Origin: a virus
Taxonomy: Duplodnaviria > Caudoviricetes
Reading direction: 5' to 3' (one strand)
Length of the DNA stretch: 64,000 nt
IMG/VR virus record: IMGVR_UViG_3300028392_002123
Shown: in pieces, positions 8,848-45,627 of the stretch
Numbering within the stretch: the stretch's first letter is position 1
Layout of the letters: each line of letters opens with the position of its first letter
The notes under the pieces: model-generated
What the model was told of the DNA's origin: nothing
Databases searched by the model: none
What the model saw: only the letters and a program-made list of their open reading frames with translations
Position numbers and translations under genes: made by a program

Positions 8848-9357
8848 TTACAAATTGTTATCCATGATAAACTCTTTGACTATGTCAAAGGTATATGGAG
8901 GATTGAAACCCAGAGTAAAAACAACACGCGGTTCATTGAAGTTCAAAACTGCATGTTCAGTTTTTGTGTCAATTAGATAATAATGTCGTGGTTTATATTT
9001 TAACTCTTTGATATGATGCAGGTCTTCGCCTGTTTCATATGGTCGTCCCCAAAACGAATGACTGTCCCAGCCTGTCATTAACATATTAATAGCACAGGTT
9101 CTCACAGTATCTTTGTGAAATTTATAGTGCAGATTAGATCCCATTTTAAGAAAAACAGGCGACGTGGATTTTATATCAAATTCGTTATACAGCGCCGCCA
9201 TGACTGGATCACTGCGTATCAACATTTCTGGTAATACCAGTATGTCGAAACTGTATTGATTAAACCATTTAGCATCAGGCATGTCAATACACCCTGCAAT
9301 TTGATCATATATACTGCACGGAGTCTTAAGTTCGTAAAAGCATTCGTTTATTATCAT
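8848..9357 (-). CDS. 2OG-Fe(II) oxygenase/cupin-like protein
   Basis: HKD...EHAV...RVVFTLGF; TAAATA-N5-ATG. Confidence 0.65.
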   Translation of the reverse strand: MIINECFYELKTPCSIYDQIAGCIDMPDAKWFNQYSFDILVLPEMLIRSDPVMAALYNEFDIKSTSPVFLKMGSNLHYKFHKDTVRTCAINMLMTGWDSHSFWGRPYETGEDLHHIKELKYKPRHYYLIDTKTEHAVLNFNEPRVVFTLGFNPPYTFDIVKEFIMDNNL

Positions 9358-9369
9358 TATAATATTTAC

Positions 9370-9951
9370 CTAGTAAGCATCTTGGTAATCTTCTAGTACA
9401 TACCAGCCTAATTTTTTAAGGTCTGCTCGGATCTCATCCGTGACCACCATTTCCGAAACAAATGCCTGTGCTTCTTTATATCTAACTTGCTGTTCTTCTG
9501 TTAGTGCATTAAATTCTTCAGGAGACAATTCGTCATTATTTTTTATACCACTACAGTACCAATCAATGTAGTCGCCCTTTTCCTGCATGTCAGCAATGAT
9601 GCCACCGGCATAGCGCCAGCTGGCACTCCAAGTCTGGCCAGCCAATCTGGGTATGAATTCATTTTTTTGAAAAGTATTATTGCAAATGGCCGCGTAAAGG
9701 TTTTGTGCATAGACGTCGTTGTCGCGAACTTTTTCCAATATCCACGGAGTACTGCGTAGATCATACTCCATGTTATTTTCTTGCCAAGCGGGATCGGCTT
9801 CCCGTTGTTGTTTATCAATATCCCAACTATCGTAATATTCGGCCATGGCCTTGGTGTCCTCGTCATTTTCCGGAGTCCGGCCATCTTCGGCTCGTCGTTT
9901 TAGGAAGTTTTCTTTTTGAAAAGTATTTCTTTGTGGACTGTTTGACAGCAT
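9370..9951 (-). CDS. Hypothetical phage protein
   Basis: Long ORF in gene-dense minus-strand block; YAQNLYAAICN, YIDWYCSG. Confidence 0.7.
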   Translation of the reverse strand: MLSNSPQRNTFQKENFLKRRAEDGRTPENDEDTKAMAEYYDSWDIDKQQREADPAWQENNMEYDLRSTPWILEKVRDNDVYAQNLYAAICNNTFQKNEFIPRLAGQTWSASWRYAGGIIADMQEKGDYIDWYCSGIKNNDELSPEEFNALTEEQQVRYKEAQAFVSEMVVTDEIRADLKKLGWYVLEDYQDAY

Positions 9952-9957
9952 ATTAGT

Positions 9958-10587
9958 CTATATTATGGGTCGAAATTCTGGTTTAATAACCCCTGTCTGC
10001 AACAGCAAGGGACTTTGAAGTTTACTTGGCAATACTACATAGAATCCTTTGTAGTCTTCTTTGAGCTGATCCAATTTTTCCTGAGTATCGATATAGCGAT
10101 CAATATAAAAGTTAATGCGTTTGACTTTTTTATATATTTGTTCTTGCCAAATCTTAATACCTTCCTTGGTACGTGGGCCCTGTGTTATTGAAAAGAAATA
10201 ATAGATACCTTGGTTGATAAATGGATCAAATGCCAAATAGCCCATGTCATTTTCCCAGATATTATTGCTTGCTGGAGTATACCCCGGAGCGGTGTACACA
10301 AACAATAAACAAAAATATGGAACAACTCTAACAGGTTTGCTCCATAATTTATTCAAACTACTGGTTACAACGAACCTAACGATTTTATCATTGTCGATTT
10401 CCGCCGAAATAAAAAAATTTTTATGCGGATCGGATTCTCTGCTGGTCCACCATTTAATGTACCAATCAAAGGTCAAACTCAATCCTTCGGTGGAATATGA
10501 CTTTGATTTTTCAAATAATATTTGATCGAGACATTGCCTAAAAAGTACAATGTCGTTTTCGTCATCAGGGTTTAATAAACGTATCAT
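9958..10587 (-). CDS. Hypothetical protein
   Basis: 209 aa ORF with AGGA SD, following tRNA-fMet. Confidence 0.65.
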   Translation of the reverse strand: MIRLLNPDDENDIVLFRQCLDQILFEKSKSYSTEGLSLTFDWYIKWWTSRESDPHKNFFISAEIDNDKIVRFVVTSSLNKLWSKPVRVVPYFCLLFVYTAPGYTPASNNIWENDMGYLAFDPFINQGIYYFFSITQGPRTKEGIKIWQEQIYKKVKRINFYIDRYIDTQEKLDQLKEDYKGFYVVLPSKLQSPLLLQTGVIKPEFRPII

Positions 10588-10603
10588 TGCTGTCCTATAT
10601 AAT

Positions 10604-10679
10604 TGGTTGCGGGTGAAGGATTCGAACCTCCGTCCTCCAGGTTATGAGCCTGACAGTCTGACCACTGACGTAACCCGCG
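10604..10679 (-). tRNA. tRNA-fMet (CAT), initiator-type
   Basis: C1:A72 mismatch, anticodon stem TCAGG/CCTGG with CAT, TTCGAAT T-loop, CCA. Confidence 0.88.
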
Positions 10680-10688
10680 GTATGCTAT

Positions 10689-12853: not shown

Positions 12854-13128
12854 AGTAATTCCTCAAAATTGTATAATTACTTATTCATAGATTATACAAT
12901 AGATCCTGCAGGCAGTCAAGCAGTTTTTAACTTTTTTAAATTATCTATTGCCAATTTTACATCATTGACATTGATACATAATCTCTGTGCTATTTCAAAT
13001 GCACTAAGCCTAAGTTCTAAATAGGATCTAATTTCTGCAAGTATAAGACGCGACATACTAATCTCCAGGTATATAATATATAACGCATGAACTTAGTCTG
13101 TCGTTGACAACACACTATAAATATTTTG

Positions 13129-13896
13129 ATGCAAGACTTATTTGATATACTATACACACCCCTGGACTGTCCGCCAATGCCTAAAATAGATGTGGACAAA
13201 CTGGATCTTTGGCAACAAGATCGAGTCAATAATTTTGACAAGAACAAATCAGCAAGCGCGGCCGAACTTCAGTCCAATGCTCGCACTTGGTTTATGAAAA
13301 AATCTTTTTTTCAAGGAGATCAAAATCAATATCCCTGGGATCTATCTATGTTATATTATAATAAAAATAACAGCAACGTGGGATGGTTAGGCGGATTTGA
13401 TAAAGAGTTCCCCGAACTAGTAGAGTATATTAACTCAGCTTTTGGAATACCAGTGCATGAATTTGGCACAGTATTATTACTGCCTGTTAAAAAATCACAT
13501 ACTGGAATATACTGGCATAGAGATGATGATACATCGGGTCTGCGTATGTACATTGAACACGAAGATCCAGTGAACAATACATTAATAATGCGTAGATCTG
13601 TGACCAGAGATAGATGGCCCTTGCCATGGCAGTATGATATTACTAGGCCGTTAAATGGATTTCAAGAAGAAGATTTAACCTGCAACATTGTCAGTAAAAA
13701 TCAATGTTTCTTCCTGAACAATATTAGAGCATTGCATGCCACAGTGACCAAAGCACCTGAGCGCAGAAGATTCACATTGTTGTTTGGCGACAAGTTAAAT
13801 AGAGTCATGCCAAATAGAATTAATCAACTCACCGAAGATTTAATCAAACGTAGTGCTGAAAAATACAAAGAGCAGGCCATACTATGGCCGGTTTAA
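13129..13896 (+). CDS. 2OG-Fe(II) oxygenase/cupin-like protein (paralogue of 40052)
   Basis: WHRD...LHAT...RRFTLLF; TATAAATA-N5-ATG. Confidence 0.65.
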   Translation: MQDLFDILYTPLDCPPMPKIDVDKLDLWQQDRVNNFDKNKSASAAELQSNARTWFMKKSFFQGDQNQYPWDLSMLYYNKNNSNVGWLGGFDKEFPELVEYINSAFGIPVHEFGTVLLLPVKKSHTGIYWHRDDDTSGLRMYIEHEDPVNNTLIMRRSVTRDRWPLPWQYDITRPLNGFQEEDLTCNIVSKNQCFFLNNIRALHATVTKAPERRRFTLLFGDKLNRVMPNRINQLTEDLIKRSAEKYKEQAILWPV

Positions 13897-17476: not shown

Positions 17477-18037
17477 TCAAATTAATCTTTGATTGACCAC
17501 ATCCCAATTGATGATGCGCCAAATATTTTCTAGATACTTTTTCTTGTCAGCTTGATAGTCTAGGGCCCAGGCGTGTTCCCACCAATCAATTAACAGTACA
17601 ATTCTATCTGTGTTGCCTGTGATGCTGTGGTTGGCAATGGTCTGTATACGACCTGCGCGATCTAAAAAGATCCAACCACTGCCCTGTATGGCCATGGCCT
17701 TGGCACTGACTTGATCTTTAAATTCATCAAAGCTTTTAAAATTACGAGTGATAAAGTCCTTGGAATTTCCAGTAGGTTGATTGCCGGACTTGGGTGCTTG
17801 TAGCTGTGGAAAGAATATATTGTGCAAGTCTGCACCATTCTTATTGAACTTGGCGTCACCTTCGCCTGAGTTATAACGATCTACATAGGCCTTGGCCAAG
17901 GTGCCGTAGTGATAGTCTAGGGTAGCTTCGCTCATCACGGGTGCCAAGTCTGTTCTTTTATAGGGCAGTTTGTTAAGGCTAAGAGTCAACTTAGTGCCTT
18001 CAACCACCATGATATATCTTCTAATATCGTATTGCAT
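17477..18037 (-). CDS. Fe/Mn superoxide dismutase
   Basis: TLDYHYG, HNIFF, QGSGW, DWWEHAW. Confidence 0.92.
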   Translation of the reverse strand: MQYDIRRYIMVVEGTKLTLSLNKLPYKRTDLAPVMSEATLDYHYGTLAKAYVDRYNSGEGDAKFNKNGADLHNIFFPQLQAPKSGNQPTGNSKDFITRNFKSFDEFKDQVSAKAMAIQGSGWIFLDRAGRIQTIANHSITGNTDRIVLLIDWWEHAWALDYQADKKKYLENIWRIINWDVVNQRLI

Positions 18038-18042
18038 ATGAT

Positions 18043-18054
18043 TATTTATAAATA
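18043..18054. promoter_or_regulatory. Palindromic bidirectional T4-type late promoter
   Basis: TATTTATAAATA gives TATAAATA on both strands, each followed by 5 nt and ATG. Confidence 0.75.
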
Positions 18055-18059
18055 ATTAC

Positions 18060-18494
18060 ATGAGATACTGGGCAGAATATGTCAAAGCCGGTTGGGAATT
18101 AGTAGTATTAGCACAAGGTACTAACAAAGTCTATTTGGATCAAGACTTGGAAGCATTTCTAGTTCATGTTGTTGCTAGAACATTTGAACGCACAGATCTA
18201 TGGACAGAGCCTGTGGCAATTAAACTAATGACTGCACAGCAGTTACCACAGTATCAAAGACAGATAGCACTGAGAAACATAGGTGAGGAATGTCTGTTCA
18301 TTGACGCTTGGCAGATCAAGCAACCACGTTGGCCAGCACCTAAATACTTTGAAGACATGGGCAAGATTGCCTTTGGCTATGCCAGCGTAGCCACTGACCC
18401 TGCAGATGATTTACTGGATGCTGCCGCGGAAAATTTCACCATGGTAAGTCGTGTGCTTAGATATACCAGAGACTTGTATCTACACAATGTCTAA
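18060..18494 (+). CDS. Hypothetical protein
   Basis: 144 aa ORF from the late promoter. Confidence 0.7.
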   Translation: MRYWAEYVKAGWELVVLAQGTNKVYLDQDLEAFLVHVVARTFERTDLWTEPVAIKLMTAQQLPQYQRQIALRNIGEECLFIDAWQIKQPRWPAPKYFEDMGKIAFGYASVATDPADDLLDAAAENFTMVSRVLRYTRDLYLHNV

Positions 18495-19229: not shown

Positions 19230-19230
19230 T

Positions 19231-19437: not shown

Positions 19438-19476
19438 AAGATAAGACAGCAATTTATAGTAATTGCCAACTATAAT

Positions 19477-19552: not shown

Positions 19553-19564
19553 ATTTTCATATAT

Positions 19565-19588: not shown

Positions 19589-19627
19589 CTGCGATTTATT
19601 TATATTCAATGTCAAATAAATAGATTT

Positions 19628-20272
19628 ATGCATAGTAATAAATTTAAAGAAACATTCTCCATGGAAAATGCAAAGTTGCCCGTGGGTTTTCAGGACTTAG
19701 ACAGTGATCTGGACCAAAAAGAAGTTCAGGAGTTAATTGACTATATCCACACATTAGACTTAGATTTTTTAACCATGGGCCAAGGTACACGTGGTAATCA
19801 TTTTTATGGCAGTACGTTTTTACGATTACCTGACAGGATTCTTTATGAAGATATAATTCCACAGCCAACTTGGGATAGTTTTTGGCGCTGGGCCCAATTA
19901 CCCAAGAATCCAGACCGAGAAAGAATATATGAAGAACTTAAATTTAAGCTAAGGCCAGCAATTACATCAATGTGCGAAAGTTTGTCTAAATTTACCGGTC
20001 GACGACATTTTCCCATGGGCATAGAAATAAACATTATGCCGCCTAATTCTAGAATTGAAACTCATATTGACAAACATCCTCGAGTTGAGGAAACACACAG
20101 AGTTCACTTAGTACTGGAAACTAACCCAGGCGCACGTATGTTCTGTGGACGTGAATCGCGCCACTGTCCGCAGGGCGCTGTGTTTATTTTCAATAATAAA
20201 ATGAGTCATGCTGTGATAAATGGTGACACTGATCGCAGTCATTTAGTTGTGGACTTTTTAACCTATCGTTAA
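19628..20272 (+). CDS. Aspartyl/asparaginyl beta-hydroxylase-like 2OG-Fe(II) oxygenase
   Basis: HIDKH, HRVHLVLETN, NNKMSHAV, RSHLVVD; TAAATA-N5-ATG start at 19628. Confidence 0.75.
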   Translation: MHSNKFKETFSMENAKLPVGFQDLDSDLDQKEVQELIDYIHTLDLDFLTMGQGTRGNHFYGSTFLRLPDRILYEDIIPQPTWDSFWRWAQLPKNPDRERIYEELKFKLRPAITSMCESLSKFTGRRHFPMGIEINIMPPNSRIETHIDKHPRVEETHRVHLVLETNPGARMFCGRESRHCPQGAVFIFNNKMSHAVINGDTDRSHLVVDFLTYR

Positions 20273-20631: not shown

Positions 20632-20717
20632 TTTTATTCCTTTAGTTATGTATGTATATTATAGCACCTCAATTATTTATTGCCTAGGTACTAAATAATC
20701 AAAAGCAAGGAACAAGC

Positions 20718-23453: not shown

Positions 23454-24158
23454 CAAGCCCCTGCGCTGATATAAAGTTTCTAGACTACAGTCCAGGGCCA
23501 AGGCCACAACCAGTCTAAATCCCGGGCGATCAATGTCCAAACAATGAGCACAGTCTGTGCGTAAAAATGCGGCACAGTGGTTCTTATATAAACCATGTTT
23601 TGTTGTTGTAGGTTGGCCTAGGTACTGCCATTTTTCTAGATAGTCCCTGCCCTTGATGGCCAAGTATTGATAATTCCGCACACCTAGATTTTCATGATCC
23701 TGTATGCCCACCAAGGGATGACCAGGCACAACATTTTCCCACCAATGCATGGGATCATCAGGATCATATTCAATGACCACATTAAAGCGTGTTAGCACTG
23801 GCAGTCTGCGTAAAGGGTCCACTTCATCCCATTTATATCCATCAATATGCGGATATCCTGGCTGAGCTTTATTGGCATTATTGCTGAGGAACACGTCGGG
23901 CCCACAGAGTTCACTGCCCACATAATTTCTTTCAATGCCCCAGGTCGCCAAATAGTCACGTAGTTCTTCCAGGGCCCGACTGCCCTGCCATATTATTTTC
24001 TTATTAAAGAATTTGTGTTCTGCGTCTACAGTAGCGTATTTGTCATAGGCAATATACTTGTTGACAAAAGGATAATAATAAATTTGTTTAATCCATTCCA
24101 CTGCTTCAGCACTAAATTTAAAATCGCTGTGGTGATAACAATAATTTAATTCGCTCAT
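23448..24158 (-). CDS. 2OG-Fe(II) oxygenase/cupin-like protein
   Basis: HID...AHCL...RLVVALAL; TAAATA-N5-ATG. Confidence 0.62.
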   Translation of the reverse strand: MSELNYCYHHSDFKFSAEAVEWIKQIYYYPFVNKYIAYDKYATVDAEHKFFNKKIIWQGSRALEELRDYLATWGIERNYVGSELCGPDVFLSNNANKAQPGYPHIDGYKWDEVDPLRRLPVLTRFNVVIEYDPDDPMHWWENVVPGHPLVGIQDHENLGVRNYQYLAIKGRDYLEKWQYLGQPTTTKHGLYKNHCAAFLRTDCAHCLDIDRPGFRLVVALALDCSLETLYQRRGLL

Positions 24159-24188
24159 AGTCGTATTTATTATTCATAAATATTCATT

Positions 24189-25637
24189 ATGCACGTCATA
24201 TTTTTAAACAGTATATACACACAAATTCCGCAAAGAAGTCTTGGTCCGTATTTGCTCAAACATCAATTAGCCAAGAATAATTATCAAAGTCAAGTCATTG
24301 ATTTTTGTCAAGACTGGCATGCTGATCAAATTTTACTGCTATTTAAAAAATTTGCCACAGACAAAACTCTGTGTTTGGCACTGAGCAGTACATTTTGGTT
24401 TGACGAAACACAGACTTATTATACCTATGACAACGGAATTCCGCCCAACATTTATCAAGCCGTTAAATTAATTAAACAACAGTTTCCCCAGGTTAAAATC
24501 GTTTTGGGCGGAGCGCACAGTAGTTATATGCGTTATAGAATAGAAGACGTGGACTGTGTGTTCATTGGAGAAAGCGAAGACACACTGGTAGAAGTGTTGG
24601 ACCATTGGTGCCGGGCCGGCCAAGAACCTGTCAGTGAAATTAATCCCGCCACAGGCAAATTAACATACAGAGATCCAAGGAATAAAAAATATCAAATACA
24701 GACCTGTGATTTTATGTGGCAGGAAGAAGACTGTATTATCAACAAAGAAGCTCTGCCCATGGAAACTGCTAGAGGCTGTATATTTAAATGTAGTTTTTGC
24801 GCTTATCCGCACTTGGGTAAAAAGAAATTCGATTATTTAAAACCCAATGATGCCATTAAAAATTATTTAATTAACAATTATAATCGTTGGCAGACCACTA
24901 GTTATATCATCTTAGATGACACTTTCAATGACAGCGAATATAAAATAGATGGATTTTTAGATATTACTAAAAGCCTGCCTTTTAGCATAGAATACGCGGC
25001 CTATATTAGAGCAGACTTGGTCTATAGGTTTGAAGGCATGGCAGACAAGCTGGCAGAAACAGGCCTGCGTGGAGCTTTCTTTGGCATTGAAAGCCTGCAC
25101 CCCCGGGCCAGTCAGATTGTGGGCAAAGGCTGGAGCGGTAGACATGCTCGTGAGTTTGTGCCCAGACTGGTACATGACACGTGGCAGAATAAGATCACTG
25201 CACATTGTGGATTAATTGTGGGACTGCCCGGAGAAACTCGTGAAGATTTAACTACAAGTTTAACCTGGGCCAATGACAACATGATCAATGTTATTTTCTT
25301 TGGCCTGCAGGTCACTAATAACTTACACGAGCGTAGCTATATCAGTGAATTCGAGCGTAACGCTGACAAATATGGATTTAAATTTGACGAGCATGGAAAA
25401 TGGTATAATGACACGTGGACAAGAAATTCTGTTTTAGAATTCAGCGCACAATTAAATCCTCAGCGCAGGCGCATGAATTATTCGGGATTTAATCACGTGG
25501 CCCTGCACACACTGGGCTATACCAATGAAGAAATAATGAACACACACCAGGATCTACTAGTGCGTAACAGTGAGGAATTTCGTCAGCGTAAACAACAATT
25601 CCTCAGGGCCTATTGGAATAAAATTATCAATTTATAA
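24189..25637 (+). CDS. B12-binding radical SAM enzyme (paralogue of 21969)
   Basis: IVLGG, GESED; ETARGCIFKCSFC; DDTFN; FGIES. Confidence 0.88.
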   Translation: MHVIFLNSIYTQIPQRSLGPYLLKHQLAKNNYQSQVIDFCQDWHADQILLLFKKFATDKTLCLALSSTFWFDETQTYYTYDNGIPPNIYQAVKLIKQQFPQVKIVLGGAHSSYMRYRIEDVDCVFIGESEDTLVEVLDHWCRAGQEPVSEINPATGKLTYRDPRNKKYQIQTCDFMWQEEDCIINKEALPMETARGCIFKCSFCAYPHLGKKKFDYLKPNDAIKNYLINNYNRWQTTSYIILDDTFNDSEYKIDGFLDITKSLPFSIEYAAYIRADLVYRFEGMADKLAETGLRGAFFGIESLHPRASQIVGKGWSGRHAREFVPRLVHDTWQNKITAHCGLIVGLPGETREDLTTSLTWANDNMINVIFFGLQVTNNLHERSYISEFERNADKYGFKFDEHGKWYNDTWTRNSVLEFSAQLNPQRRRMNYSGFNHVALHTLGYTNEEIMNTHQDLLVRNSEEFRQRKQQFLRAYWNKIINL

Positions 25638-25646
25638 ATAACAACA

Positions 25647-26207
25647 ATGATGTATAAAAAATTAATTCTGCCCCGGGATTTAATCACGGAAATTCAAATA
25701 ACTGCCATTGAGGAAATGTCTACATTTGATGTTAATTCTGGACAGCTACATTTCTTAATTAAACCACAGCATGTCATGGGCAAATATTTAAAAATGACCT
25801 ATCCCACTCTGCCCTTTTTATATAATTGTTTATTATTTCATCGTCCCCCTAATTTTCAACAGGCTCTGCACATAGACTGTAACAATGAAGATCCGCCGCA
25901 GTTGATCAACTGTGCCATTAATATACCCCTGCAAAACTGTGACGACAGCTACATGGAATGGTACTCGGGTGCGTATACCACAGAAGTCAATGCCACAGTG
26001 GGTCAGGATGGTAGAACTAGAAAATTCGTTGAACTAGCATGGCAGGGAGAACCCCAGTTAATAGAAAAAACAATAATAGATCAGCCCACGCTGGTACGTG
26101 TTAATCAGCCACATAGAATCAGTTGTATTAGTCGTGTGCGTAGTTTAATTACTTTTAGATTCAGCAAGAATCCTGATTTTGACACAGTGGAAGCTATGAT
26201 GCTTTGA
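25647..26207 (+). CDS. 2OG-Fe(II) oxygenase/cupin-like protein
   Basis: HID...PHRI...RSLITFRF; TATAAATA-N6-ATG. Confidence 0.65.
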   Translation: MMYKKLILPRDLITEIQITAIEEMSTFDVNSGQLHFLIKPQHVMGKYLKMTYPTLPFLYNCLLFHRPPNFQQALHIDCNNEDPPQLINCAINIPLQNCDDSYMEWYSGAYTTEVNATVGQDGRTRKFVELAWQGEPQLIEKTIIDQPTLVRVNQPHRISCISRVRSLITFRFSKNPDFDTVEAMML

Positions 26208-27439: not shown

Positions 27440-28219
27440 TTAATTCTTGGCTATCCAAAAGCTTAGATGACAGCGTGTCTGTTCTTCTCTGGGCTGATAC
27501 CAACCCACGCCCACTGACGCCACTGAGTGCATGTAGTCCTTGGTGAATATTTCATAGACCTGACCATCCGCGGGAATATAGTGTCCGACAAAGTCCATGG
27601 GCTGTTGTGCTTCTTCTTGATCAAAGCCTGCTTTCCATTTAAAATTTCTAGCACTGAATAATAGTACGTGCCCGGGGTTGGTCCACAGGGGAATATGAAA
27701 TCTATTTTCCACGGGATCGTCTTTGTGCCAGTAAAGTCCCTGACTGGTACCATTGACTGTTCTATTCTGACAGCGTATGCGTATGGGTGCTTGAAATTTA
27801 TCCTGCATGTAATTGTGCAGTTCTTCCACTATGGTGCCTTTAAATCTAGGCACCAGCTCGGCTAATTGATCATCGGTCATAGCAGGTTCTTCAACGCCCA
27901 CACCGTCAACAACACGACCCCTGCGTCCGGTGCCGCCAAACAACTGTTGATCCAATTCAGTGAATCTAGACAGGTTAGTGGTTAAATTAATATCACCATT
28001 GGTAATTCTGCTGGGATTGACAGCGTTGTAATCATGATGCAGGCTGGCATCACACCAATCCTCTGTGCCCAACTTTTTAAGTTCAACTGTTCTACGCCAG
28101 TGATCAAATCTAATGCCCGCTAGGAATACTCTGTCGCGAACAACTTCGGTTATTTTATTCACGTCCCATTGACTGAGATCTTGTCGTACTTCATAATATT
28201 TTTTAAACAGTGACGTCAT
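27440..28219 (-). CDS. 2OG-Fe(II) oxygenase (Asp/Asn hydroxylase-like)
   Basis: WHKD, RFHIPLWTN, MHSV, RCHL; TATAAATA-N5-ATG. Confidence 0.68.
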   Translation of the reverse strand: MTSLFKKYYEVRQDLSQWDVNKITEVVRDRVFLAGIRFDHWRRTVELKKLGTEDWCDASLHHDYNAVNPSRITNGDINLTTNLSRFTELDQQLFGGTGRRGRVVDGVGVEEPAMTDDQLAELVPRFKGTIVEELHNYMQDKFQAPIRIRCQNRTVNGTSQGLYWHKDDPVENRFHIPLWTNPGHVLLFSARNFKWKAGFDQEEAQQPMDFVGHYIPADGQVYEIFTKDYMHSVASVGVGWYQPREEQTRCHLSFWIAKN

Positions 28220-28266
28220 GAAATTATTTATAGCAAAAATCGTTTATTTTCACTATAAATATTCAC

Positions 28267-29289
28267 ATGCCCACTAGTCCTTATTTACTGCGCTATAGAG
28301 ATCCCGAGGTTAAAGAACCCGAAAATATAGAAACCAACGAATTTATTCAAAGACAGCTGGGCCGTCGCAGTCTGCGTAATTATGATCCACAGCGTAAAAT
28401 ATCCTGGGAACAGCTCAGTTATTTGATCACTGCCGCGCAATGCAGTCCCAATGGCAGTGGCGCACAAAGTTGGAGTGTGATTGCACTGATCACTGACGAA
28501 GAAAAAAGAATATTCCGGGAAGCCGCAGGCTCTGTTCTAGACGGCACAGATCCTTTGAATAGATTAAACTATGATAACTGTAGTGTATTTTTAATTTGGA
28601 TCGCAGACAACTACAAAAATGAACAGGGTATACGCATTGTAGGCAACAAAGAACTTTCTCCAGAAGAATTAAAACTCATGCCCAAGCATATATCTGCTAC
28701 TATATCTGTGCATCCTGTGCCGGGTAGAGATGACATATTATTTGATGTTGAACAGCATGTGCAAAACTTAGATCAAAGTTATTATTCTATTAGAGCCATG
28801 CAGGACTGTATTATTGCCGCACAGACCTTTGTTATGTGTGCTGAAAGTCTGGGCATGGGCACACTATACATGGGCAGTATAGCACATTGTGAACTAGCCA
28901 GTTTTAAAAATACATTAAATTTACCCAATAAAACTTATCCCCTTTTTGGCATGTGCGTGGGCTATGAACTAGCACCAGGCAGTGATCACAACGGCATACA
29001 TATTAATAATGGGCAAAGCGACTTGTACAGAAAGATCAGATATTCCGATGCAGATTATGCAGACTGGCTGATCAAACCTGTGCAACCACAGGATATTGTT
29101 CTGCATCGTGCCAAATATAATAAAGATGTCAAGGCCAGTTTATTCAAATATAATAAAATCATTTATGAATATGTCAGCAGATTAAAATCTCGCCGGGCAA
29201 ATTATTTGGTTAGTAGAGTAGCACAGCGCATTTATAAAGTAGTTGATCAATTGGGCCTAATGATGGCCATGGGTAATCGATGGCGTTGA
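28267..29289 (+). CDS. Nitroreductase family flavoprotein (NfsA-like)
   Basis: RRSLRNY, AQCSPNGSGAQSWS, AESLGMGTLYMG, PLFGMCVGY. Confidence 0.85.
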   Translation: MPTSPYLLRYRDPEVKEPENIETNEFIQRQLGRRSLRNYDPQRKISWEQLSYLITAAQCSPNGSGAQSWSVIALITDEEKRIFREAAGSVLDGTDPLNRLNYDNCSVFLIWIADNYKNEQGIRIVGNKELSPEELKLMPKHISATISVHPVPGRDDILFDVEQHVQNLDQSYYSIRAMQDCIIAAQTFVMCAESLGMGTLYMGSIAHCELASFKNTLNLPNKTYPLFGMCVGYELAPGSDHNGIHINNGQSDLYRKIRYSDADYADWLIKPVQPQDIVLHRAKYNKDVKASLFKYNKIIYEYVSRLKSRRANYLVSRVAQRIYKVVDQLGLMMAMGNRWR

Positions 29290-29320
29290 TCACTAAATAT
29301 TTTAAACAAGTGGAGATACT

Positions 29321-29947
29321 ATGAATTTTGCCGCGGCATATCAAATTATTGGCCGAGTCCCTGACAGTCTATTAGAAAAGGTCAACGAAGAAATTAATCA
29401 TGCACTAACAGATGCTGACTTTAATTACAAAGATAGAAACGTAGAAACCGCAGAACTAAGCTGGCTACGCTTGGACTTTATGCGGCCGCCAGAAGATAAA
29501 AATCGCATGCCATTGTACACTAGTATACTGGCAGTGATCAATCATATCACTGAAAATTATAACATTGATCCATTAAACTCTGTGAGTGTTAGTATGCTCA
29601 AGCCCCTGCAGGTCCTGGATGAGCACACCGATGGCCGCTTTTTACACAGAATTACCAATAGATATTTGGTGCCATTAATGGACAGTGAAGTTAATTATAA
29701 CTATGGTTGGTATGAAAATGAAAAGGTAATCTATCCTTTACGCTATGGCAATATCTATAGAGTTAACAATGCCATTGTTCACAGCGCATTGAATTTGGAA
29801 AATGCCGAAAGATTTAACATATTAATTGACACATGGGAGCCCAGACTCAAGGCCAAATTTAAAGATCATCAAGACTTAATGGCGGCATTAACAGTACTGG
29901 GAGTTAACTATAACTTTGAAAAACGATTGAAAGTGAAACCAAAATGA
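29321..29947 (+). CDS. Asp/Asn beta-hydroxylase-like 2OG-Fe(II) oxygenase
   Basis: HTD...YRVNNAIVHSA...RFNILID. Confidence 0.7.
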   Translation: MNFAAAYQIIGRVPDSLLEKVNEEINHALTDADFNYKDRNVETAELSWLRLDFMRPPEDKNRMPLYTSILAVINHITENYNIDPLNSVSVSMLKPLQVLDEHTDGRFLHRITNRYLVPLMDSEVNYNYGWYENEKVIYPLRYGNIYRVNNAIVHSALNLENAERFNILIDTWEPRLKAKFKDHQDLMAALTVLGVNYNFEKRLKVKPK

Positions 29948-32230: not shown

Positions 32231-32814
32231 AGGTCATTGATTTAATTAAAACACCCATGGAGGGCCTGTGGGCAGACTGTCTGACAGTGATTGCTGACAG
32301 TGAGGATCCCTTAAAAGAAAATTATACCACAATAAACTTTGAAGAGTTTATCAGTTTTCCCTGTGTCGTTGACAGTGATAGAATAGTCTGTTTCAGCGGC
32401 CTGCAATACAACGAACGTAAGTGGGGTCGGGGCATTGCCAGAGCCAGTAGTAGGATGTGGATAGATCCTGCATATAGACATCAAGGTATTACCAAATTCA
32501 CTGGTGGTAGTAAATTTCTCAATACCACTTACTGCCTGCCCTTACAGTTTGCAGAACTTGCGGCCAACAATATTAACAGCGTTTTTATCAGCAGGGAAAG
32601 CAATGTTCGTGCTTTTAAAGAATATTTAAAATTGATTAAGATTAACTGTGGCATGGAATTCGAATTGGAACCGAATTTGTACAATGTCTGTGGGCCACAG
32701 TCTGTGATACCTGTGAGTTGCCAACAATTCGTTGCTGTACACCATAGAAATAAGTCCGCGTCGACTTGGACTGCAAATATGATTAAGTATAAACTTAATG
32801 AATTTATTATTTAA
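32227..32814 (+). CDS. Hypothetical protein, GNAT-like
   Basis: VCFSGL, RASSRMWIDPAYRHQG resembles GNAT motif A. Confidence 0.4.
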   Translation: MKVIDLIKTPMEGLWADCLTVIADSEDPLKENYTTINFEEFISFPCVVDSDRIVCFSGLQYNERKWGRGIARASSRMWIDPAYRHQGITKFTGGSKFLNTTYCLPLQFAELAANNINSVFISRESNVRAFKEYLKLIKINCGMEFELEPNLYNVCGPQSVIPVSCQQFVAVHHRNKSASTWTANMIKYKLNEFII

Positions 32815-32822
32815 ATAACTGT

Positions 32823-33731
32823 ATGAACATGGGAAATATTAAAGGCTACTACGAAGATGATCCTTCAAGGGTATTTAGAACCGGTATGATGGATCTACTT
32901 ACTTTTGAAGTACAAGGATGCACGAGGCCGGCACAGACACTCAAAGAAGAATTGATGCTAGCGGCCAGTGATATATACAATACTGTACCTGATATACACA
33001 TAGCACTATCCGGTGGTTGGGAAAGTAACGTATGTCTGCATACTTTTATGGAAGCAGGATATAAACCCCGGGTAATGATTCTGGAGTTTCCCCGGGGACT
33101 CAATGACTTTGACACAGATCCTGCCAAAGAAGCTTGCCGTAGATATGGCATTACTCCTACCATCGTACCTGTTGACATGTCCTTTCTAGACTTTATCAAA
33201 AACGCTGTAGTACCTGTGGTAGAAAAATATCAAACATATACTTTTTTTCAAAGTTTGTTTGCTTATTACTTGGAAAAAACAAAAATCAACTGCTTGCTAG
33301 TAGATAAAGTAGATCTGCGCCGCGATCTAAATCCTAATGGTCAGTGGAGTTTTATACGCAGTGAAGTAGCTACATGGACTGATCGATTCAACACACTCAA
33401 CGAAAATAAAGTATTGATGAATTTTTATTGTCACAGTCCCGAAGCCATGCTGGCCTATTTAGAACTGCCCACTATAGTCGACTTGATGAATCATCCTAAA
33501 AATGGTAAGCTAAGTCTACAAAGTCTCAAACATAAGATCTATCTAGAAGGCGGATACAATATTCCATTGTTTACACGAACTGTCAGCACTGATAAGATCA
33601 TTGGCGTAACAGCGGCCTGCGAAGAAAAGATTAAAAAAGACATTGGTTGGAAAACTAGGATAGGCTACGTAGAGTATCCTAAAATTGTTCAAGCATTAAA
33701 AAGTGAAGGTGGAAAATGGCAATACATTTAA
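32823..33731 (+). CDS. PP-loop (adenine nucleotide alpha-hydrolase) superfamily protein
   Basis: IALSGGWES variant loop; TAAATA-N5-ATG. Confidence 0.6.
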   Translation: MNMGNIKGYYEDDPSRVFRTGMMDLLTFEVQGCTRPAQTLKEELMLAASDIYNTVPDIHIALSGGWESNVCLHTFMEAGYKPRVMILEFPRGLNDFDTDPAKEACRRYGITPTIVPVDMSFLDFIKNAVVPVVEKYQTYTFFQSLFAYYLEKTKINCLLVDKVDLRRDLNPNGQWSFIRSEVATWTDRFNTLNENKVLMNFYCHSPEAMLAYLELPTIVDLMNHPKNGKLSLQSLKHKIYLEGGYNIPLFTRTVSTDKIIGVTAACEEKIKKDIGWKTRIGYVEYPKIVQALKSEGGKWQYI

Positions 33732-35184: not shown

Positions 35185-35701
35185 TCCTGATAATTGGATT
35201 ATTGGTGAGCATACTAACAAAGATGCTATGATATGGGCGATATCAGATCGTCCTTGGTATAATCTTAGAACTTATACTATTAAAGATGAATTTTCTTTGC
35301 CCGCACAGTTAAAAACCAATAGCTGGACGCAGGTAGAAATTAATAGGGAAAACACTTGCCCACAGGATGTGCTGAGAGAAATTAAATTAATCGAAGCTAG
35401 AATTAAATTCTGTGCGGAGTTATACTATCGCTTACAAATAGCACAGGAAAATCTAGGACTCAGCATGACTAATTTTACCTTGGTGCAATTACATGAATAT
35501 CTCGTCAGCAAAGGACTAGTTGAAGGAGAAGCCAATCCAGATGCCAGCATACAGTACGAAAACAAACTGAGATTATTACAAGATTTAAACAACATCAAAA
35601 ATCAAGTTGTTGCTTCTTTAATGTCTGCGGCAACCATTGAAGATTTTGCTCAAACAAGAGCACTCATGGAACGCCTATTCTTCACTAACATATTACTATG
35701 A
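35153..35701 (+). CDS. Hypothetical helical partner of PP-loop enzyme
   Basis: Coupled to the next gene; C-terminal SAATIEDF resembles 54095. Confidence 0.6.
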   Translation: MQLQFRTLIINPDNWIIGEHTNKDAMIWAISDRPWYNLRTYTIKDEFSLPAQLKTNSWTQVEINRENTCPQDVLREIKLIEARIKFCAELYYRLQIAQENLGLSMTNFTLVQLHEYLVSKGLVEGEANPDASIQYENKLRLLQDLNNIKNQVVASLMSAATIEDFAQTRALMERLFFTNILL

Positions 35702-37647: not shown

Positions 37648-37673
37648 AAAAAAAGGACCTTTCGGTCCTTTTT
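37648..37673. terminator. Bidirectional intrinsic terminator
   Basis: A7-GGACC-TTTC-GGTCC-T5. Confidence 0.8.
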
Positions 37674-37687
37674 AAATAAGTAGTTAT

Positions 37688-37885
37688 ATGATTACTGTAG
37701 AACAAGCTATTCGAGATATGTACCAGCAGTTAGGCGGGCAACCGTATGCACAGCGTTTTTATTCCACTACAGTACGAGAGTTTACAGCCAGTCACTTTCA
37801 TGTCAAAAAGAACTTTGAAACCGACACGATGTTGACTGGCAAACAACAAGAGTTTGTCCATGATAAATGTCAAACAAAAGGATAA
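37688..37885 (+). CDS. Small hypothetical protein
   Basis: 65 aa ORF after TAAATA. Confidence 0.4.
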   Translation: MITVEQAIRDMYQQLGGQPYAQRFYSTTVREFTASHFHVKKNFETDTMLTGKQQEFVHDKCQTKG

Positions 37886-39043: not shown

Positions 39044-39694
39044 TTAAATGTTTGACTGTGTCAACTGATATTTTGCAATTAGATTATCAATTAATTCTTT
39101 TTTTGGTTCAGTGTGAAATTGATACCAGATGTGTAATCTTCTATGACCTTTGGGAACATGGATATCATGCTGTATCGCTGTTTGTATCAGCACCGGAGTA
39201 CTGGTAATAGGTTGATGTACAGTCAATGATTCTGTGTCGTTTCTAAATTTCCAAAGACATTCCGGAGTTGTTTCCACAGCAATGTGTACACGAAAGGGAG
39301 TGTGATTATCCACGTGCCAGTTAAGATTTACATTAGCATGATCTTTGTATAATAAACTTGATCTTGCTCTAGGCGGCCCTATTTCTAAGTATTCTGAAAA
39401 TAACTTTCCCAGCTGTTGAATATAAGATCCCTGCAATGATCTGGGCCAATGCACTAAATCTCTGTCATCTTCTCCTGTGGCCAGTATATGTCTACTATGA
39501 GGATTAAATTTACGTTGTCCACTGTATTTTGTAAAACTGAAATTGTCGTTGTTAAGATCTTCTAGTTGACAAGTTAGACCGCAGTCTATGCCAATCTGTG
39601 GTTTAACTATGTTATAAATCTCTTGTCGAACTTTATCAACATCAACATTAATATCTACTAAGGGGATATAAAATTGATCTAATAGTGTATGCAT
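39044..39694 (-). CDS. 2OG-Fe(II) oxygenase (Asp/Asn hydroxylase-like)
   Basis: WHVD, RVHIAVET, QHDI, RRLHIWY; TATAAATA-N5-ATG. Confidence 0.68.
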   Translation of the reverse strand: MHTLLDQFYIPLVDINVDVDKVRQEIYNIVKPQIGIDCGLTCQLEDLNNDNFSFTKYSGQRKFNPHSRHILATGEDDRDLVHWPRSLQGSYIQQLGKLFSEYLEIGPPRARSSLLYKDHANVNLNWHVDNHTPFRVHIAVETTPECLWKFRNDTESLTVHQPITSTPVLIQTAIQHDIHVPKGHRRLHIWYQFHTEPKKELIDNLIAKYQLTQSNI

Positions 39695-39707
39695 GGTGAT
39701 ATTTATA

Positions 39708-39782: not shown

Positions 39783-39831
39783 TACGACTTATGTTGTATA
39801 TATCAATGACCAGTTATCTTTAAATAAGTGT

Positions 39832-40026
39832 ATGACTAGAACTCTTTCAATTTACGTTAATAATATATTTTGGAAAGCCATTACCATAGATGTTGCTCCA
39901 AATAATTCATACCCACTGGGCCCTATACTAGAAATGGTTAATACTGCACGAGCCAACGGCGTTTTCAATGATTACGAAGTTAGTCCGGATCATTTTAACA
40001 TACGTGTTGCGCTGTCGCATAATTAA
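39832..40026 (+). CDS. Small hypothetical protein
   Basis: TAAATA-N5-ATG. Confidence 0.55.
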   Translation: MTRTLSIYVNNIFWKAITIDVAPNNSYPLGPILEMVNTARANGVFNDYEVSPDHFNIRVALSHN

Positions 40027-40051
40027 TAAGATCTAACTGTTAAATACTTGT

Positions 40052-40771
40052 ATGTTAACAGATGTAATTTATACTCCAGTGGATCCACTGGAACCTATGC
40101 CAGAAGTTGATCCTAAAAAATTTCACCAATGGATCAAAGACAATTATCCTAAAACAGCAGTCTATAGGGACATAATAATTAATAAAGGACGAACTGCATC
40201 AGGCAGGGTAGAAAATTATCCATGGGATTTAACAGTGGGTTATATGGCCAGTATGGGGTGGGTGGGCACCTTTAAAAATGAATGGCCTGAGCTAGCAGAC
40301 TGGATTCCACGAGCATGGGGCATTGATATCACAGATATTGGTGTTATTATATTTTTACCTACAAGAGAACAACAATTAGGCACAGCATTTTGGCATAATG
40401 ATGCAGATCTGCATGGCCTTAGATTTTATATAGAATTTGAAGATCCAGAAAACAATACGTTGTTAATGAGAAGAACTAAAATCAAACACGAAGTTAAACC
40501 TATATATGATTATCCATTGGATACAGAAAAATATTTACAAAAAGAAATTTTAACTTGTAATATATCAAAAAGGAATCAGGTATTCTTTTTAAACAACACA
40601 TTGTCTGCTCATGCTGTACATACCAATGTACCAGGCAAGGTACGCATAGCATGTTTCATATCAATTAATACATCTAGGAATAAAAAAGTTTCTGACATTG
40701 TCTGTCCTATAATAGAACGTAGTGCAGAAAAGTATAAAGATTATTCTTTATATTGGAAACCAGAAGAGTAA
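40052..40771 (+). CDS. 2OG-Fe(II) oxygenase/cupin-like protein (paralogue of 13129)
   Basis: WHND...AHAV...RIAC; YPWDL and EDP.NNTL.MRR shared; TAAATA-N5-ATG. Confidence 0.65.
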   Translation: MLTDVIYTPVDPLEPMPEVDPKKFHQWIKDNYPKTAVYRDIIINKGRTASGRVENYPWDLTVGYMASMGWVGTFKNEWPELADWIPRAWGIDITDIGVIIFLPTREQQLGTAFWHNDADLHGLRFYIEFEDPENNTLLMRRTKIKHEVKPIYDYPLDTEKYLQKEILTCNISKRNQVFFLNNTLSAHAVHTNVPGKVRIACFISINTSRNKKVSDIVCPIIERSAEKYKDYSLYWKPEE

Positions 40772-42175: not shown

Positions 42176-42192
42176 AAAAGATAAATAATTTT

Positions 42193-42768
42193 ATGTACTG
42201 TTTCCACTTAAACTTAGATCTAGCACCTTTTAAATTTAAATTTAACTATAAAGATTACTTGCCTCCATTTGGAAAAACAAGTAATGTAGTTAAATTTAAT
42301 CTCGTCGACATAAATCCAGAACTTGTAGAATTATTAGCCGAGCGCAATATAAAAATTGGCTGGGCTGAAATGTTTATTAAACATCCTCATATGACAGTAA
42401 ATGAACAAATACACATCGATGAATTTCGAGGAGACTTTGTTAAATTAAATTGGGTCTGGGGAGGAACCGGAAGCACTATGAGATGGTTCCGAGAACTTGA
42501 TCCTGCAAAAAAATTAACACCATCAAGCAATCAAATCAACAGTCCTTATCTAGGATTCAGTATCAATGATGTTGTTCTAGAACATGAAGAAGCACTTAGT
42601 GGACCGTGTATAATACAAGTTGGTGTTCCACATAATGTTGTCATGGGCACTGATATGAGATGGGCATTGAGTTTTGTATTATTGGATATCACTGGTAATA
42701 CCAGTGCTCGACGAAGATTATCAATGCCACAAGCTTTGGAAAACCTAAGCAATCTACGCAAAGCATAA
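42193..42768 (+). CDS. 2OG-Fe(II) oxygenase/cupin-like protein
   Basis: HID...PHNV...RWALSFVL; start trimmed to TAAATA-N5-ATG at 42193. Confidence 0.65.
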   Translation: MYCFHLNLDLAPFKFKFNYKDYLPPFGKTSNVVKFNLVDINPELVELLAERNIKIGWAEMFIKHPHMTVNEQIHIDEFRGDFVKLNWVWGGTGSTMRWFRELDPAKKLTPSSNQINSPYLGFSINDVVLEHEEALSGPCIIQVGVPHNVVMGTDMRWALSFVLLDITGNTSARRRLSMPQALENLSNLRKA

Positions 42769-43860: not shown

Positions 43861-43971
43861 TTAACCATCCCATCCCTCCCGGACCCTGATATTAATCTCG
43901 CGGTCAAAGCAAAGCATTGACCAATATATGGAATGCTGTGAGCTAAGATTAAAAAGTTTGTTGTTCATCAT
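43861..43971 (-). CDS. Putative 36-aa leader peptide MMNNKLFNLSSQHSIYWSMLCFDREINIRVREGWDG
   Basis: Manual translation; ATG 7 nt after the -10 box; contains the antiterminator arm CAGGGTCC. Confidence 0.65.
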   Translation of the reverse strand: MMNNKLFNLSSQHSIYWSMLCFDREINIRVREGWDG

Positions 43972-43978
43972 AGTGTGT

Positions 43979-44007
43979 ATTATACAGTTATTTATCTTTT
44001 ATGTCAA
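43979..44007 (-). promoter_or_regulatory. Consensus sigma70 promoter of main tRNA array
   Basis: TTGACA-17-TATAAT. Confidence 0.85.
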
Positions 44008-44030
44008 TTAAATCTTTAATTTTGGTAAAA

Positions 44031-44675
44031 TTACTTGACAAAATTTACTTCTATTTTTTGTTTTGGAAAAGTGATGTAGTTGAAGTTTTCATTGACTTGA
44101 TGCTGTGTGCGTTGTTTGTTTGGATCAGGAAATCCAATACCCAGTAACAATAGCACTCCGCCTTCAGTGCCCAGAACTTTTTGTACTTTTGGGCCGTCGA
44201 AACAACCGCAGTAGCCAGTGGAATAGCCTAGCAAGTTCGCTGTAAGGTTCAAGTATCCAGATGCAATGCCCAAGGAGACTTCTCTGTCATTGTACAAAGC
44301 GTCGGGCACTCTTTCGTTGTCTTTTTCTAACCATGCCATTTGATCATTGCGATGTACACCTTCGTGTAAAACTGGTGTGACCATTTGATCTTCAAAAACC
44401 ACTAACAAATTTGCCAATGTTTGTGTGTTTGTTTCGACAATATTTTTTTCCCTGTTAACTGTAAATCCATTGGTTAACCCATGTATAGTTTCAATGATAT
44501 TTCTGTTAGTTATGAAATGACACTTATAGTAAGCTACGTTTTGTTTACTGGGACATTGTGTAACTGCTGATACTAGTGTATCTAGATCTGCTTGCGGAAT
44601 AGACTTAGTCAAATCCCAATTACGTTGGCAATGTTGACTTTTTTCAATTATGGTTTCGATGTCATTGTTTGTCAT
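44031..44675 (-). CDS. Nitroreductase family protein
   Basis: CQRNWD, CPSKQN, ANLLGYSTGYCGCF, LLLGIGF. Confidence 0.8.
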   Translation of the reverse strand: MTNNDIETIIEKSQHCQRNWDLTKSIPQADLDTLVSAVTQCPSKQNVAYYKCHFITNRNIIETIHGLTNGFTVNREKNIVETNTQTLANLLVVFEDQMVTPVLHEGVHRNDQMAWLEKDNERVPDALYNDREVSLGIASGYLNLTANLLGYSTGYCGCFDGPKVQKVLGTEGGVLLLLGIGFPDPNKQRTQHQVNENFNYITFPKQKIEVNFVK

Positions 44676-44686
44676 TGTATCTCCTA

Positions 44687-45604
44687 TTAACTAATATCTA
44701 ATTTGTTATTTACAATGAAGGACATCAAAGATTTATTAGATCTCAGCACCGTATTAGTCATCGATGATTCGGTGGATCCCACCGGCATCAGTCCTAGATT
44801 AAATACAGTTTCTTTAAATTCTTTATTTTTAAAAACACTGATTGCATCACTGACAATTTTTTCTTTCATTGATTTACTCATTGATTTGGCTACCACTAAG
44901 CAAATATAACTTTGGTAAGGAAAAGATTCTTTAAAATATTTGTCCCACGTAAGTATGTTATCTCCCATGTCGTGGCTGGCAAATAATATACTAACACGGC
45001 TGTCTCCGATAAAAGGTTTGACACTTGAATAGTTGCCAAATGTACAGTCTACTTGCCCTGCTAGAACATCCATGGCGCCTTTATTACCTCCACTGGGATA
45101 AGGAACGATAATGTGTTTTCCCTGAGCACGTACAAACAATGCTTCAGTGGCAATATGTTCTGAGCTACCATAGCCGTTGACTGCAAAACTTAGAGATTTT
45201 TTTGTGTTTAAAAACTCGTTGAACGTTGTGATACCCAGACCAGCTCTGCAAGCTAACAAATTAGGAAGTACAGCCACTGTTCCTAAAATTTCTAAATCTC
45301 GTTCAGTGTCGTATTCTAAGTCTTTATAATTTAAAGTGTTAGTGACATAAATCTGTGGCATAGTGGCCATGAGCACACTTTCACCTTTGAGTACTTGTTT
45401 CATTGCCAGTCTGCCGGCCGCACCCGGACGATTCATAACAATATAATCTTCTATTGAGAGATTCTTGACTATCAGTCTAGTAATTCTATCACTGGGACCG
45501 CCAGGAGCATGATGCACAGTATACTCAATAATCGATGCAGGCTTTGCACAGACAGAGAAAATTACCAGTGATATCACTAGTAAAAATTTAATTGTATTCT
45601 TCAT
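44687..45604 (-). CDS. Bug/TctC tripartite tricarboxylate transporter substrate-binding protein
   Basis: Signal peptide; APGGPSDRITR, NRPGAAG, GYGSSEH, VPYPSGG, DVLAGQVD. Confidence 0.85.
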   Translation of the reverse strand: MKNTIKFLLVISLVIFSVCAKPASIIEYTVHHAPGGPSDRITRLIVKNLSIEDYIVMNRPGAAGRLAMKQVLKGESVLMATMPQIYVTNTLNYKDLEYDTERDLEILGTVAVLPNLLACRAGLGITTFNEFLNTKKSLSFAVNGYGSSEHIATEALFVRAQGKHIIVPYPSGGNKGAMDVLAGQVDCTFGNYSSVKPFIGDSRVSILFASHDMGDNILTWDKYFKESFPYQSYICLVVAKSMSKSMKEKIVSDAISVFKNKEFKETVFNLGLMPVGSTESSMTNTVLRSNKSLMSFIVNNKLDIS

Positions 45605-45627
45605 ATATCTACTTATAAGCCAAGGCC

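Follow-up and report, generated by a model that had tools for sequence, protein, structure and literature searches.

The 64-kb stretch of DNA analyzed here (IMG/VR record IMGVR_UViG_3300028392_002123, hereafter the window; 39% GC) is found in freshwater metagenomes and belongs to an uncultured jumbo phage. About 15 of its transcription units appear to have a T4-type late promoter, recognizable by the hexamer TAAATA, fused directly to the start codon, so that their first cistrons would be carried on leaderless late mRNAs. The probability of this reading is put at roughly three in four. In the proposed mechanism, host RNA polymerase with a phage gp55-like sigma factor would read TAAATA as a -10-like box that has no -35 element. 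The box in these units ends 5 (sometimes 6) nucleotides (nt) before the start codon, transcription would begin at the A of the AUG or within one or two bases of it, and the first cistron, lacking both a leader and a Shine-Dalgarno (SD) sequence, would be translated from the 5' end of the mRNA. Other late units would use the same box with a leader of 14-35 nt that carries an SD, and downstream cistrons would depend on an SD or on stop-start coupling.

The TAAATA box and its distance from the start codon

The window contains 77 TAAATA sites on its two strands, 17 of which are followed by an ATG after exactly 5 nt (N5). Other offsets hold fewer ATGs (three at N6, five at N7, zero to four at each of the rest). 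The ATG rate at offsets 10-60 predicts only 1.4 such matches (binomial P = 5e-14), and 100 dinucleotide-preserving shuffles gave a mean of 2.16 TAAATA-N5-ATG matches (standard deviation 1.68, maximum 9). The full box, TATAAATA, occurs 13 times in the window and has an ATG at N5 in 8 of these. Fourteen of the 17 N5 matches are the first ATG of a real open reading frame (ORF); the other three (1481, 13807 and 34250) are not gene starts.

An initial annotation of the window had listed 13 of these 14 starts, and each was found at its coordinate and on its strand as the first ATG of an ORF; the fourteenth is 59359(-). The variant box TATAAGTA that it reported at 45604(-) is likewise present, as are its near matches at N6 (24189 and 25647) and N7 (7268 and 48688). 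The spacer histogram it had proposed as a check gives the N5 peak described above, far over the expectation from AT content. Roughly 113 genes were called in the window with a simple ORF script, which also scored the SD as a 4-mer match. About 16 of them carry the fused design, namely the N5 starts, the N6 starts at 24189 and 25647, and the variant at 45604. By the same script, window gene starts with a box form a sharp peak at N5 (13 genes, with two more at N6). None of these 15 N5/N6 genes has an SD 4-mer, which bears out the earlier claim that the listed genes lack an SD; about 45% of the other window genes have one.

The late-type fused starts of the window are the following.

9355..9368, minus strand: TAAATA-N5-ATG of a gene of 169 amino acids (aa), 8848-9357; 12 nt past the upstream same-strand stop
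13116..13131, plus strand: TATAAATA-N5-ATG of a 255-aa gene, 13129-13896; the upstream neighbour is on the opposite strand
18035..18062, both strands: two back-to-back TATAAATA boxes forming a palindrome within a 22-nt gap, each with its own divergent ATG at N5; the genes are a superoxide dismutase (SOD)-like gene, 17477-18037(-), and a 144-aa gene, 18060-18494(+)
19617..19630, plus strand: ATAAATA-N5-ATG of an Asp/Asn beta-hydroxylase-like gene, 19628-20272; 75 nt from an opposite-strand tRNA-Gly
24156..24191, both strands: divergent pair in a 30-nt gap, TAAATA-N5-ATG of gene 23448-24158(-) and TAAATA-N6-ATG of a B12-binding radical-SAM gene, 24189-25637(+)
25633..25649, plus strand: TATAAATA-N6-ATG of a 186-aa gene, 25647-26207
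28217..28269, both strands: divergent TATAAATA-N5-ATG pair in a 47-nt gap, gene 27440-28219(-) and nitroreductase-like gene 28267-29289(+)
32812..32825, plus strand: TAAATA-N5-ATG of a 302-aa gene, 32823-33731; an internal promoter 8 nt past the upstream stop
39692..39707, minus strand: TATAAATA-N5-ATG of a 216-aa gene, 39044-39694; 13 nt after a tRNA-Arg
39821..39834, plus strand: TAAATA-N5-ATG of a 64-aa gene, 39832-40026
40041..40054, plus strand: TAAATA-N5-ATG of a 239-aa gene, 40052-40771
42182..42195, plus strand: ATAAATA-N5-ATG of a 191-aa gene, 42193-42768; 18 nt from an opposite-strand tRNA-His
45602..45617, minus strand: variant box TATAAGTA-N5-ATG of a TctC-like gene, 44687-45604
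59357..59370, minus strand: TAAATA-N5-ATG of an 85-aa gene, 59102-59359, in an early block

The extreme case is 18035-18062, where overlapping TATAAATA boxes fill the whole 22-nt gap. The least convincing site is 59359(-), which is ambiguous; it lies in an early block, 4 nt past the upstream stop.

Signatures of probable leaderless expression

Two further data sets were used. One pools 430 non-redundant gene starts of 80 viral contigs with the window's SOD-like gene, fetched out of more than 597 such contigs (54-83% protein identity). The other is a relative, hereafter G001, a 235-kb IMG/VR contig that is 66% complete and whose radical-SAM protein is 77% identical to that of the window; the genome-wide distribution of sites was examined in G001 rather than in the window's own genome. 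The 430 gene starts of the 80 contigs fall into three classes, of which the leadered one (N14-35) surely includes some chance box matches:

box at N4-6: 41 genes, 0 with an SD
box at N14-35: 51 genes, 40 with an SD
no box: 338 genes, 127 with an SD

The absence of an SD from the N4-6 genes (0/41 in the contigs, as 0/15 in the window) is highly significant (Fisher P = 6e-10). The spacing in the contigs is bimodal, with offsets 10-14 empty or nearly so, and at the short end gene starts number 9, 29 and 3 at N4, N5 and N6, respectively. The same peak as in the window is seen in G001 (6, 16 and 4) and in the cultured phage HTVC008M (11 at N5). The bimodal spacing together with the exclusion of the SD therefore suggests one promoter used in two ways, either fused to the AUG or with an SD-bearing leader.

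The base preceding the start codon also sets the fused genes apart. Among 69 pooled N5 genes it is T in 71%, C in 25%, A in 3% and G in 1%, compared with A 49%, T 29%, C 11% and G 11% in 360 SD-led genes, so that a pyrimidine stands at -1 in 96% of the N5 genes versus 40% of the SD-led ones (Fisher P = 1e-19). Bacterial RNA polymerase prefers a pyrimidine at -1 and a purine at +1 of the start site, and the bias in the N5 genes, which matches this rule, fits a start at the A of the ATG. The triplet that opens the ORF at N5 is ATG in 12 cases in the window, 19 in G001 and 11 in HTVC008M; GTG and TTG occur as singletons at noise level. Leaderless initiation requires a 5'-AUG, a requirement that the ATG-only starts fit. 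RNA folding over the first 40 nt from the AUG is weaker in the N5 genes than in the SD-led genes (mean -1.9 versus -3.1 kcal/mol, P = 4e-6). No alternative SD-led start was found downstream within the N5 genes.

The box as a probable T4-type late promoter

T4 late transcription is driven by the sigma factor gp55 with the co-activator gp33 and the sliding clamp gp45. The 8-bp T4 late box has its first T at -13 and so occupies positions -13 to -6 (Geiduschek and Kassavetis, PMC2988020), in agreement with the initial annotation, which had argued that T4 geometry puts +1 on the A of these ATGs. With a spacing of N5, a box at -13 to -6 would therefore make the A of the ATG the first transcribed base. 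The window shares with T4 the TATAAATA box, the lack of a conserved -35 element, and a T followed by an A at the fifth and sixth positions after the box; in T4 late promoters T is found in 59% at the fifth position and A in 59% at the sixth. When 69 N5 sites and 75 leadered sites were pooled, TAAATA was invariant, an A was preferred just before it, and the composition further upstream was flat, with no -35-like conservation.

A gp55-like sigma factor is encoded in G001 at 212727-213290 (phrog_234, E = 5.5e-24). Its closest cultured relatives are those of PA5oct (53% identity), Phosso, Atu_ph07 and RaK2-type jumbo phages, not those of Kyanoviridae. No gp55-family sigma was found within the 64-kb window. 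For gp33 and gp45, tblastn with the HTVC008M proteins gave no match in the window or in G001.

The box precedes virion and lysis genes, as in T4. In G001 it stands 17-28 nt upstream of SD-bearing portal, tail, tail-fibre, endolysin and radical-SAM genes, and genes for two virion structural proteins and several HNH/homing endonucleases follow it at N5; in HTVC008M it precedes virion genes. The box is thus associated with virion and lysis genes in one relative and with virion genes in the other phage. The fused sites of G001 are spread over its 235 kb and are about 4 times denser in the tRNA/cargo region. Taken together with the gp55-like sigma of this close relative, these features suggest that TAAATA (fuller form A/T-ATAAATA) is a T4-type late promoter.

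Conservation in relatives

Fused boxes are retained where the surrounding DNA is not. The SOD-like gene (17477-18037(-), Fe/Mn type) occurs in at least 597 uncultured viral contigs in IMG/VR, and among cultured phages its nearest homologues belong to the PA5oct-type jumbo phages of Pseudomonas (39%) and to Vibrio phage 2.275.O. In most of the 80 contigs it is preceded by ATAAATA-N4/5-ATG, despite differing spacers and flanks. As a first cistron the gene has the box at N4/5; as an internal one it has an SD instead of the box.

Spacings in orthologues of the window and G001 are N5/N5 at 24158, N6/N4 at 24189, N6/N6 at 25647, N5/N4 at 39832 and N5/N5 at 19628. The divergent 24158/24189 pair is thus kept in G001 as N5 plus N4, with protein identity from residue 1 and diverged upstream DNA. 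In well-aligned pairs generally, amino-acid conservation begins at the fused ATGs and nucleotide changes are mostly in third positions, while the 30 nt upstream of the fused ATGs, the box apart, differ at 12-24 positions.

The clearest natural experiment is the gene at 29321-29947.

29300..29323, plus strand: in the window, CTAAATA at N21 from the start of 29321-29947, with the SD GTGGAG

In G001 its orthologue has TATAAATA-N5-ATG and no SD. The two proteins are 70% identical and align from residue 1.

Alternative explanations

Several points weigh against leaderless expression from fused promoters. Among the sequencing runs listed for 18001-28000 and 27400-29300 none was of RNA, and the 5' ends are placed by carrying the geometry of T4 and Escherichia coli over to the polymerase of this phage's host. 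The gp55 homologue is that of G001, and gp33 and gp45 were not found in the 66%-complete G001 (phrog_254, phrog_223, PF02916). Gene and SD calls rest on the simple ORF and 4-mer script, and the weaker structure at the 5' end of the N5 genes is partly due to their lower GC content (0.32 versus 0.35). Some orthologues vary between N4 and N7, which implies that, if the start site does not move with the spacing, some messages would have a leader of 1-2 nt or begin within the ATG. Finally, seven of the 17 late-type sites lie 4-25 nt behind a same-strand gene or tRNA, where read-through followed by reinitiation is possible.

This last point feeds the alternative that fares best, although it too is unlikely. 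It accepts the late promoters as real and holds that ribosomes reach the adjacent ATGs mainly on longer read-through transcripts, by termination-reinitiation or by SD-independent binding of the 30S subunit at an AU-rich site, the N5 spacing then reflecting genome compaction. Besides the seven sites just mentioned it can call on boxes that overlap or abut the upstream stop codon (32823, 59359 and 9357). The remaining ten sites, however, lie at divergent junctions or beside tRNAs of the opposite strand, and the gaps there measure 18-75 nt except for one of 275 nt. No upstream same-strand transcript reaches them, and the short divergent gaps therefore leave no room for another promoter plus a leader. 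Nor would compaction alone fix the spacing at 5, impose a pyrimidine at -1 or exclude GTG and TTG starts.

Translation signals typically keep a short, constant distance from the start codon, and UAAAUA could accordingly be imagined as an RNA-level substitute for the SD, contacting S1 or the ribosome, rather than as a promoter. This is very unlikely, and as a pure translation signal the motif was rejected. The same box stands at variable distances of 14-35 nt upstream of genes with their own SD, it is the known consensus of gp55 promoters, and a gp55 homologue is present in the relative; the divergent gaps of 22-30 nt would leave no promoter to make such an RNA, and the pyrimidine rule at -1 is a signature of transcription.

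Less probable still is an endonucleolytic processing site at which longer transcripts are trimmed to the AUG. Primer-extension 5' ends at T4 late boxes do not separate initiation from processing (PMC2988020), which leaves such a reading some ground. No nuclease candidate was identified, though, the motif is identical to the promoter consensus, and the 22-nt divergent gaps hold no other promoter from which a precursor could come.

Chance in AT-rich intergenic DNA was rejected as an origin: low GC content favours such matches, and even in T4 the TAAATA-N5-ATG matches number 10, with 5 expected, but none of the 100 shuffles reached 17, the binomial P is minute, 14 of the 17 matches fall on gene starts, unlike in T4, and the sites are kept in relatives, including the SOD contigs, while their flanks diverge.

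SD-dependent initiation in the late programme

The initial annotation had proposed that much of the late enzyme programme is translated from leaderless mRNAs. Leaderless translation is supported by the spacing, the absence of an SD, the pyrimidine at -1, the ATG-only starts and the relatives; its restriction to enzymes did not hold, as relatives use the fused design for virion structural genes too. The data do not support the annotation's further idea of a route that would keep working once SD-dependent initiation is shut off. Downstream cistrons of the same late operons use an SD (29321, 30165 and 33716), and so does most of the leadered late class, to which the portal, tail fibre and endolysin genes of G001 belong; these encode the late products most evidently made in abundance. 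SD-dependent initiation must therefore work late in infection.

Early sigma70 promoters fused to the start codon

Four early genes of the window have a sigma70 promoter directly before the ATG. Three of them, at 4034, 43971 and 61177, which end 6-7 nt ahead of the ATG, had been noted in the initial annotation and were recovered; 57701(-) is an addition.

4032..4069, minus strand: TTGACA-17-TACAAT, 6 nt before the ATG of a dCMP-deaminase-like gene, 3522-4034, without an SD
43969..44007, minus strand: TTGACA-17-TATAAT, 7 nt before the ATG of a 36-codon ORF that precedes a tRNA array, without an SD
57699..57736, minus strand: TTGACA-17-TATAAT, 6 nt before the ATG of a 113-aa gene, 57360-57701, without an SD
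61175..61212, minus strand: TTGACA-17-TATAAT, 6 nt before the ATG of a 77-aa gene, 60944-61177, without an SD

The orthologue of 61177 in G001 keeps TATAAT-N6-ATG. About 11 other sigma70 promoters of the window have leaders of 22-37 nt with an SD. The four fused promoters indicate that the leaderless design would therefore not be confined to the late class. The dCMP-deaminase-like gene (3522-4034) is a candidate for early leaderless expression in nucleotide metabolism.

Gene content and other features of the window

The window carries 29 tRNA genes (10604-49624), all on the minus strand, in several arrays that are interleaved with small ORFs and plus-strand late units. Two blocks of small minus-strand genes have textbook TTGACA-17-TATAAT promoters and strong AAGGAG-like SDs. 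The cargo region that separates the blocks has enzyme genes on both strands, whose products are SOD-like, two Asp/Asn-hydroxylase-like cupins, two B12-binding radical-SAM proteins, and nitroreductase-like, TauD-like, GNAT-like, NMO-like and TctC-like proteins. No match in cultured phages was obtained by megablast (8 kb) or by tblastn (494-aa protein). Searches with the nitroreductase-like gene found no viral relatives, and a TctC-like query against bacterial genomes, run to find a host, gave no match.

A 17-kb island within this region (20718-37643) has late units that encode enzymes of the tailoring type: two paralogous B12-binding radical-SAM proteins, nitroreductase-like, TauD-like, GNAT-like and QueC-like proteins, and the two cupins. 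No scaffold enzyme was recognized among its proteins. Its first unit probably begins at GTG 20718, which has CTAAATA at N20 and the SD AAGGA.

Three other places contain the box in unusual settings. At 34239-34252 the GNAT-like gene contains an in-frame TATAAATA-N5-ATG, 25 codons short of the gene's stop, that is kept in the relative (L001, ~20626-20639); this may be an internal late promoter serving the genes that follow, or no more than conserved coding sequence. At 37650-37690 (+) a GC-rich hairpin followed by a T-run, resembling an intrinsic terminator, closes the long plus-strand late operon, and directly after it comes TAAATA-N9-ATG of a 65-codon ORF without an SD. The 46-nt divergent gap at 46789-46834, between a 386-aa gene (45628-46788(-)) and a 312-aa gene (46835-47773(+)), has TAAATA on each strand at N27-30 with only weak SD-like sequences, and may be a leadered back-to-back promoter pair.

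Comparison with other phages and with known leaderless genes

Cultured phages were surveyed by comparing TAAATA-N5-ATG counts with a reversed-pattern control. Enrichment was found in HTVC008M (14 versus 4 in the control, P = 1.4e-5) and in Mosig (11 versus 3). The N5 ATGs of HTVC008M are the annotated starts of tape-measure-like, DNA end protector, head closure and tail-tube cap genes, two baseplate wedge genes, and genes for a tail completion protein, a 2-oxoglutarate oxygenase, CsgF and a cyclase. HTVC008M also encodes gp55 and gp33. Both phages differ from the window in that they belong to the Kyanoviridae, with genomes of ~145 kb and a marine SAR11 host; the sigma of G001 is closest to the PA5oct/RaK2 type.

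T4 uses the box differently. None of its boxes lies at N4-6 of a gene start, whereas 32 starts have a box at N12-40 and 28 of them have an SD; the window has 15 starts with a box at N5-6, none with an SD. No N5 enrichment over the control was seen in T4, S-PM2, Syn9, KVP40, P-SSM2, P-SSM3, S-RSM4 or phiM19, nor in PA5oct, Phosso, Atu_ph07, Vibrio phage 2.275.O or RaK2. Melnitz has a weak N5 signal (5 versus 3 in the control), and the paper describing it lists 15 late promoters found with TATAAAT. Late promoters of cyanomyoviruses have been reported as NATAAATA (PMC2984593). These and the other cultured gp55 phages thus have the same box and the same sigma family but lack the N5 enrichment.

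Leaderless mRNAs are abundant in mycobacteria (PMC4633059). The genes of the window share with classical leaderless mRNAs a -10 element fixed a few bases before the AUG, the absence of an SD and the requirement for AUG. The classical phage cases, lambda cI transcribed from PRM and P2 gene V, are single regulatory genes under the host sigma70, and the four sigma70-fused early genes are exactly of this type. The late genes differ in that they form a whole class of units under a phage late sigma, and strong SDs are used by the same phage as well. An analogy, and no more, is offered by poxviruses, in whose late promoters the TAAATG initiator overlaps the start codon, so that here too a late-promoter core is fused to the ATG. 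Those promoters are read by the viruses' own polymerase and yield a slipped poly(A) leader; poxviruses are eukaryotic viruses, and nothing in the window suggests slippage.

Distribution and significance

Both parts of the design, the T4-type late promoter and the leaderless mRNA, are known; their systematic fusion is new. As far as we know, the textbook account of T4 late transcription gives every late message a leader and a ribosome-binding site. A literature search (leaderless or late-promoter phage, gp55, cyanophage, T4-like, SAR11) returned no description of promoter-fused late genes, and no paper was found that mentions the fused design for HTVC008M or Mosig. The contributions made here are the test of the pyrimidine at -1, the natural experiment of N21 plus SD versus N5, the palindromic 22-nt double promoter and the survey of cultured phages.

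Two distantly related gp55 lineages have the fused trait, and their cultured kin that infect enteric, Pseudomonas, Vibrio, rhizobial or cyanobacterial hosts do not, a distribution that hints at a link with host or habitat. That the fusion is a host-linked adaptation rather than a lineage trait, shared by a freshwater jumbo clade related to PA5oct and RaK2 and by SAR11 pelagimyophages, is a tentative idea and unlikely. HTVC008M encodes ribosomal protein bS21 (91237-91392; PF01165, E = 4.8e-19); bS21 was not found in the 66%-complete G001 or in the window, and any connection with the mode of initiation is speculation. If the host-linked idea were true, late (and some early) messages would include a separate translational class, suited to hosts that initiate well on a 5'-AUG, and ribosome factors of phage origin such as this bS21 may modulate it.

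For annotation, the box-N5-ATG rule pins start codons and corrects those at 19628 and 42193, where the longest-ORF calls (19463/19526 and 42160) extend into tRNA genes. Late promoters inside divergent gaps of 22-47 nt would be missed or discarded by promoter finders that expect a leader. Since the cultured phages HTVC008M and Mosig, which grow on Pelagibacter ubique HTCC1062, share the design, a testable system exists. A large uncultured clade of freshwater phages appears to fuse its late promoter to the start codon and, if this is true, T4-type phages would have a second mode of expression, a leaderless class of late messages that in relatives includes virion genes.

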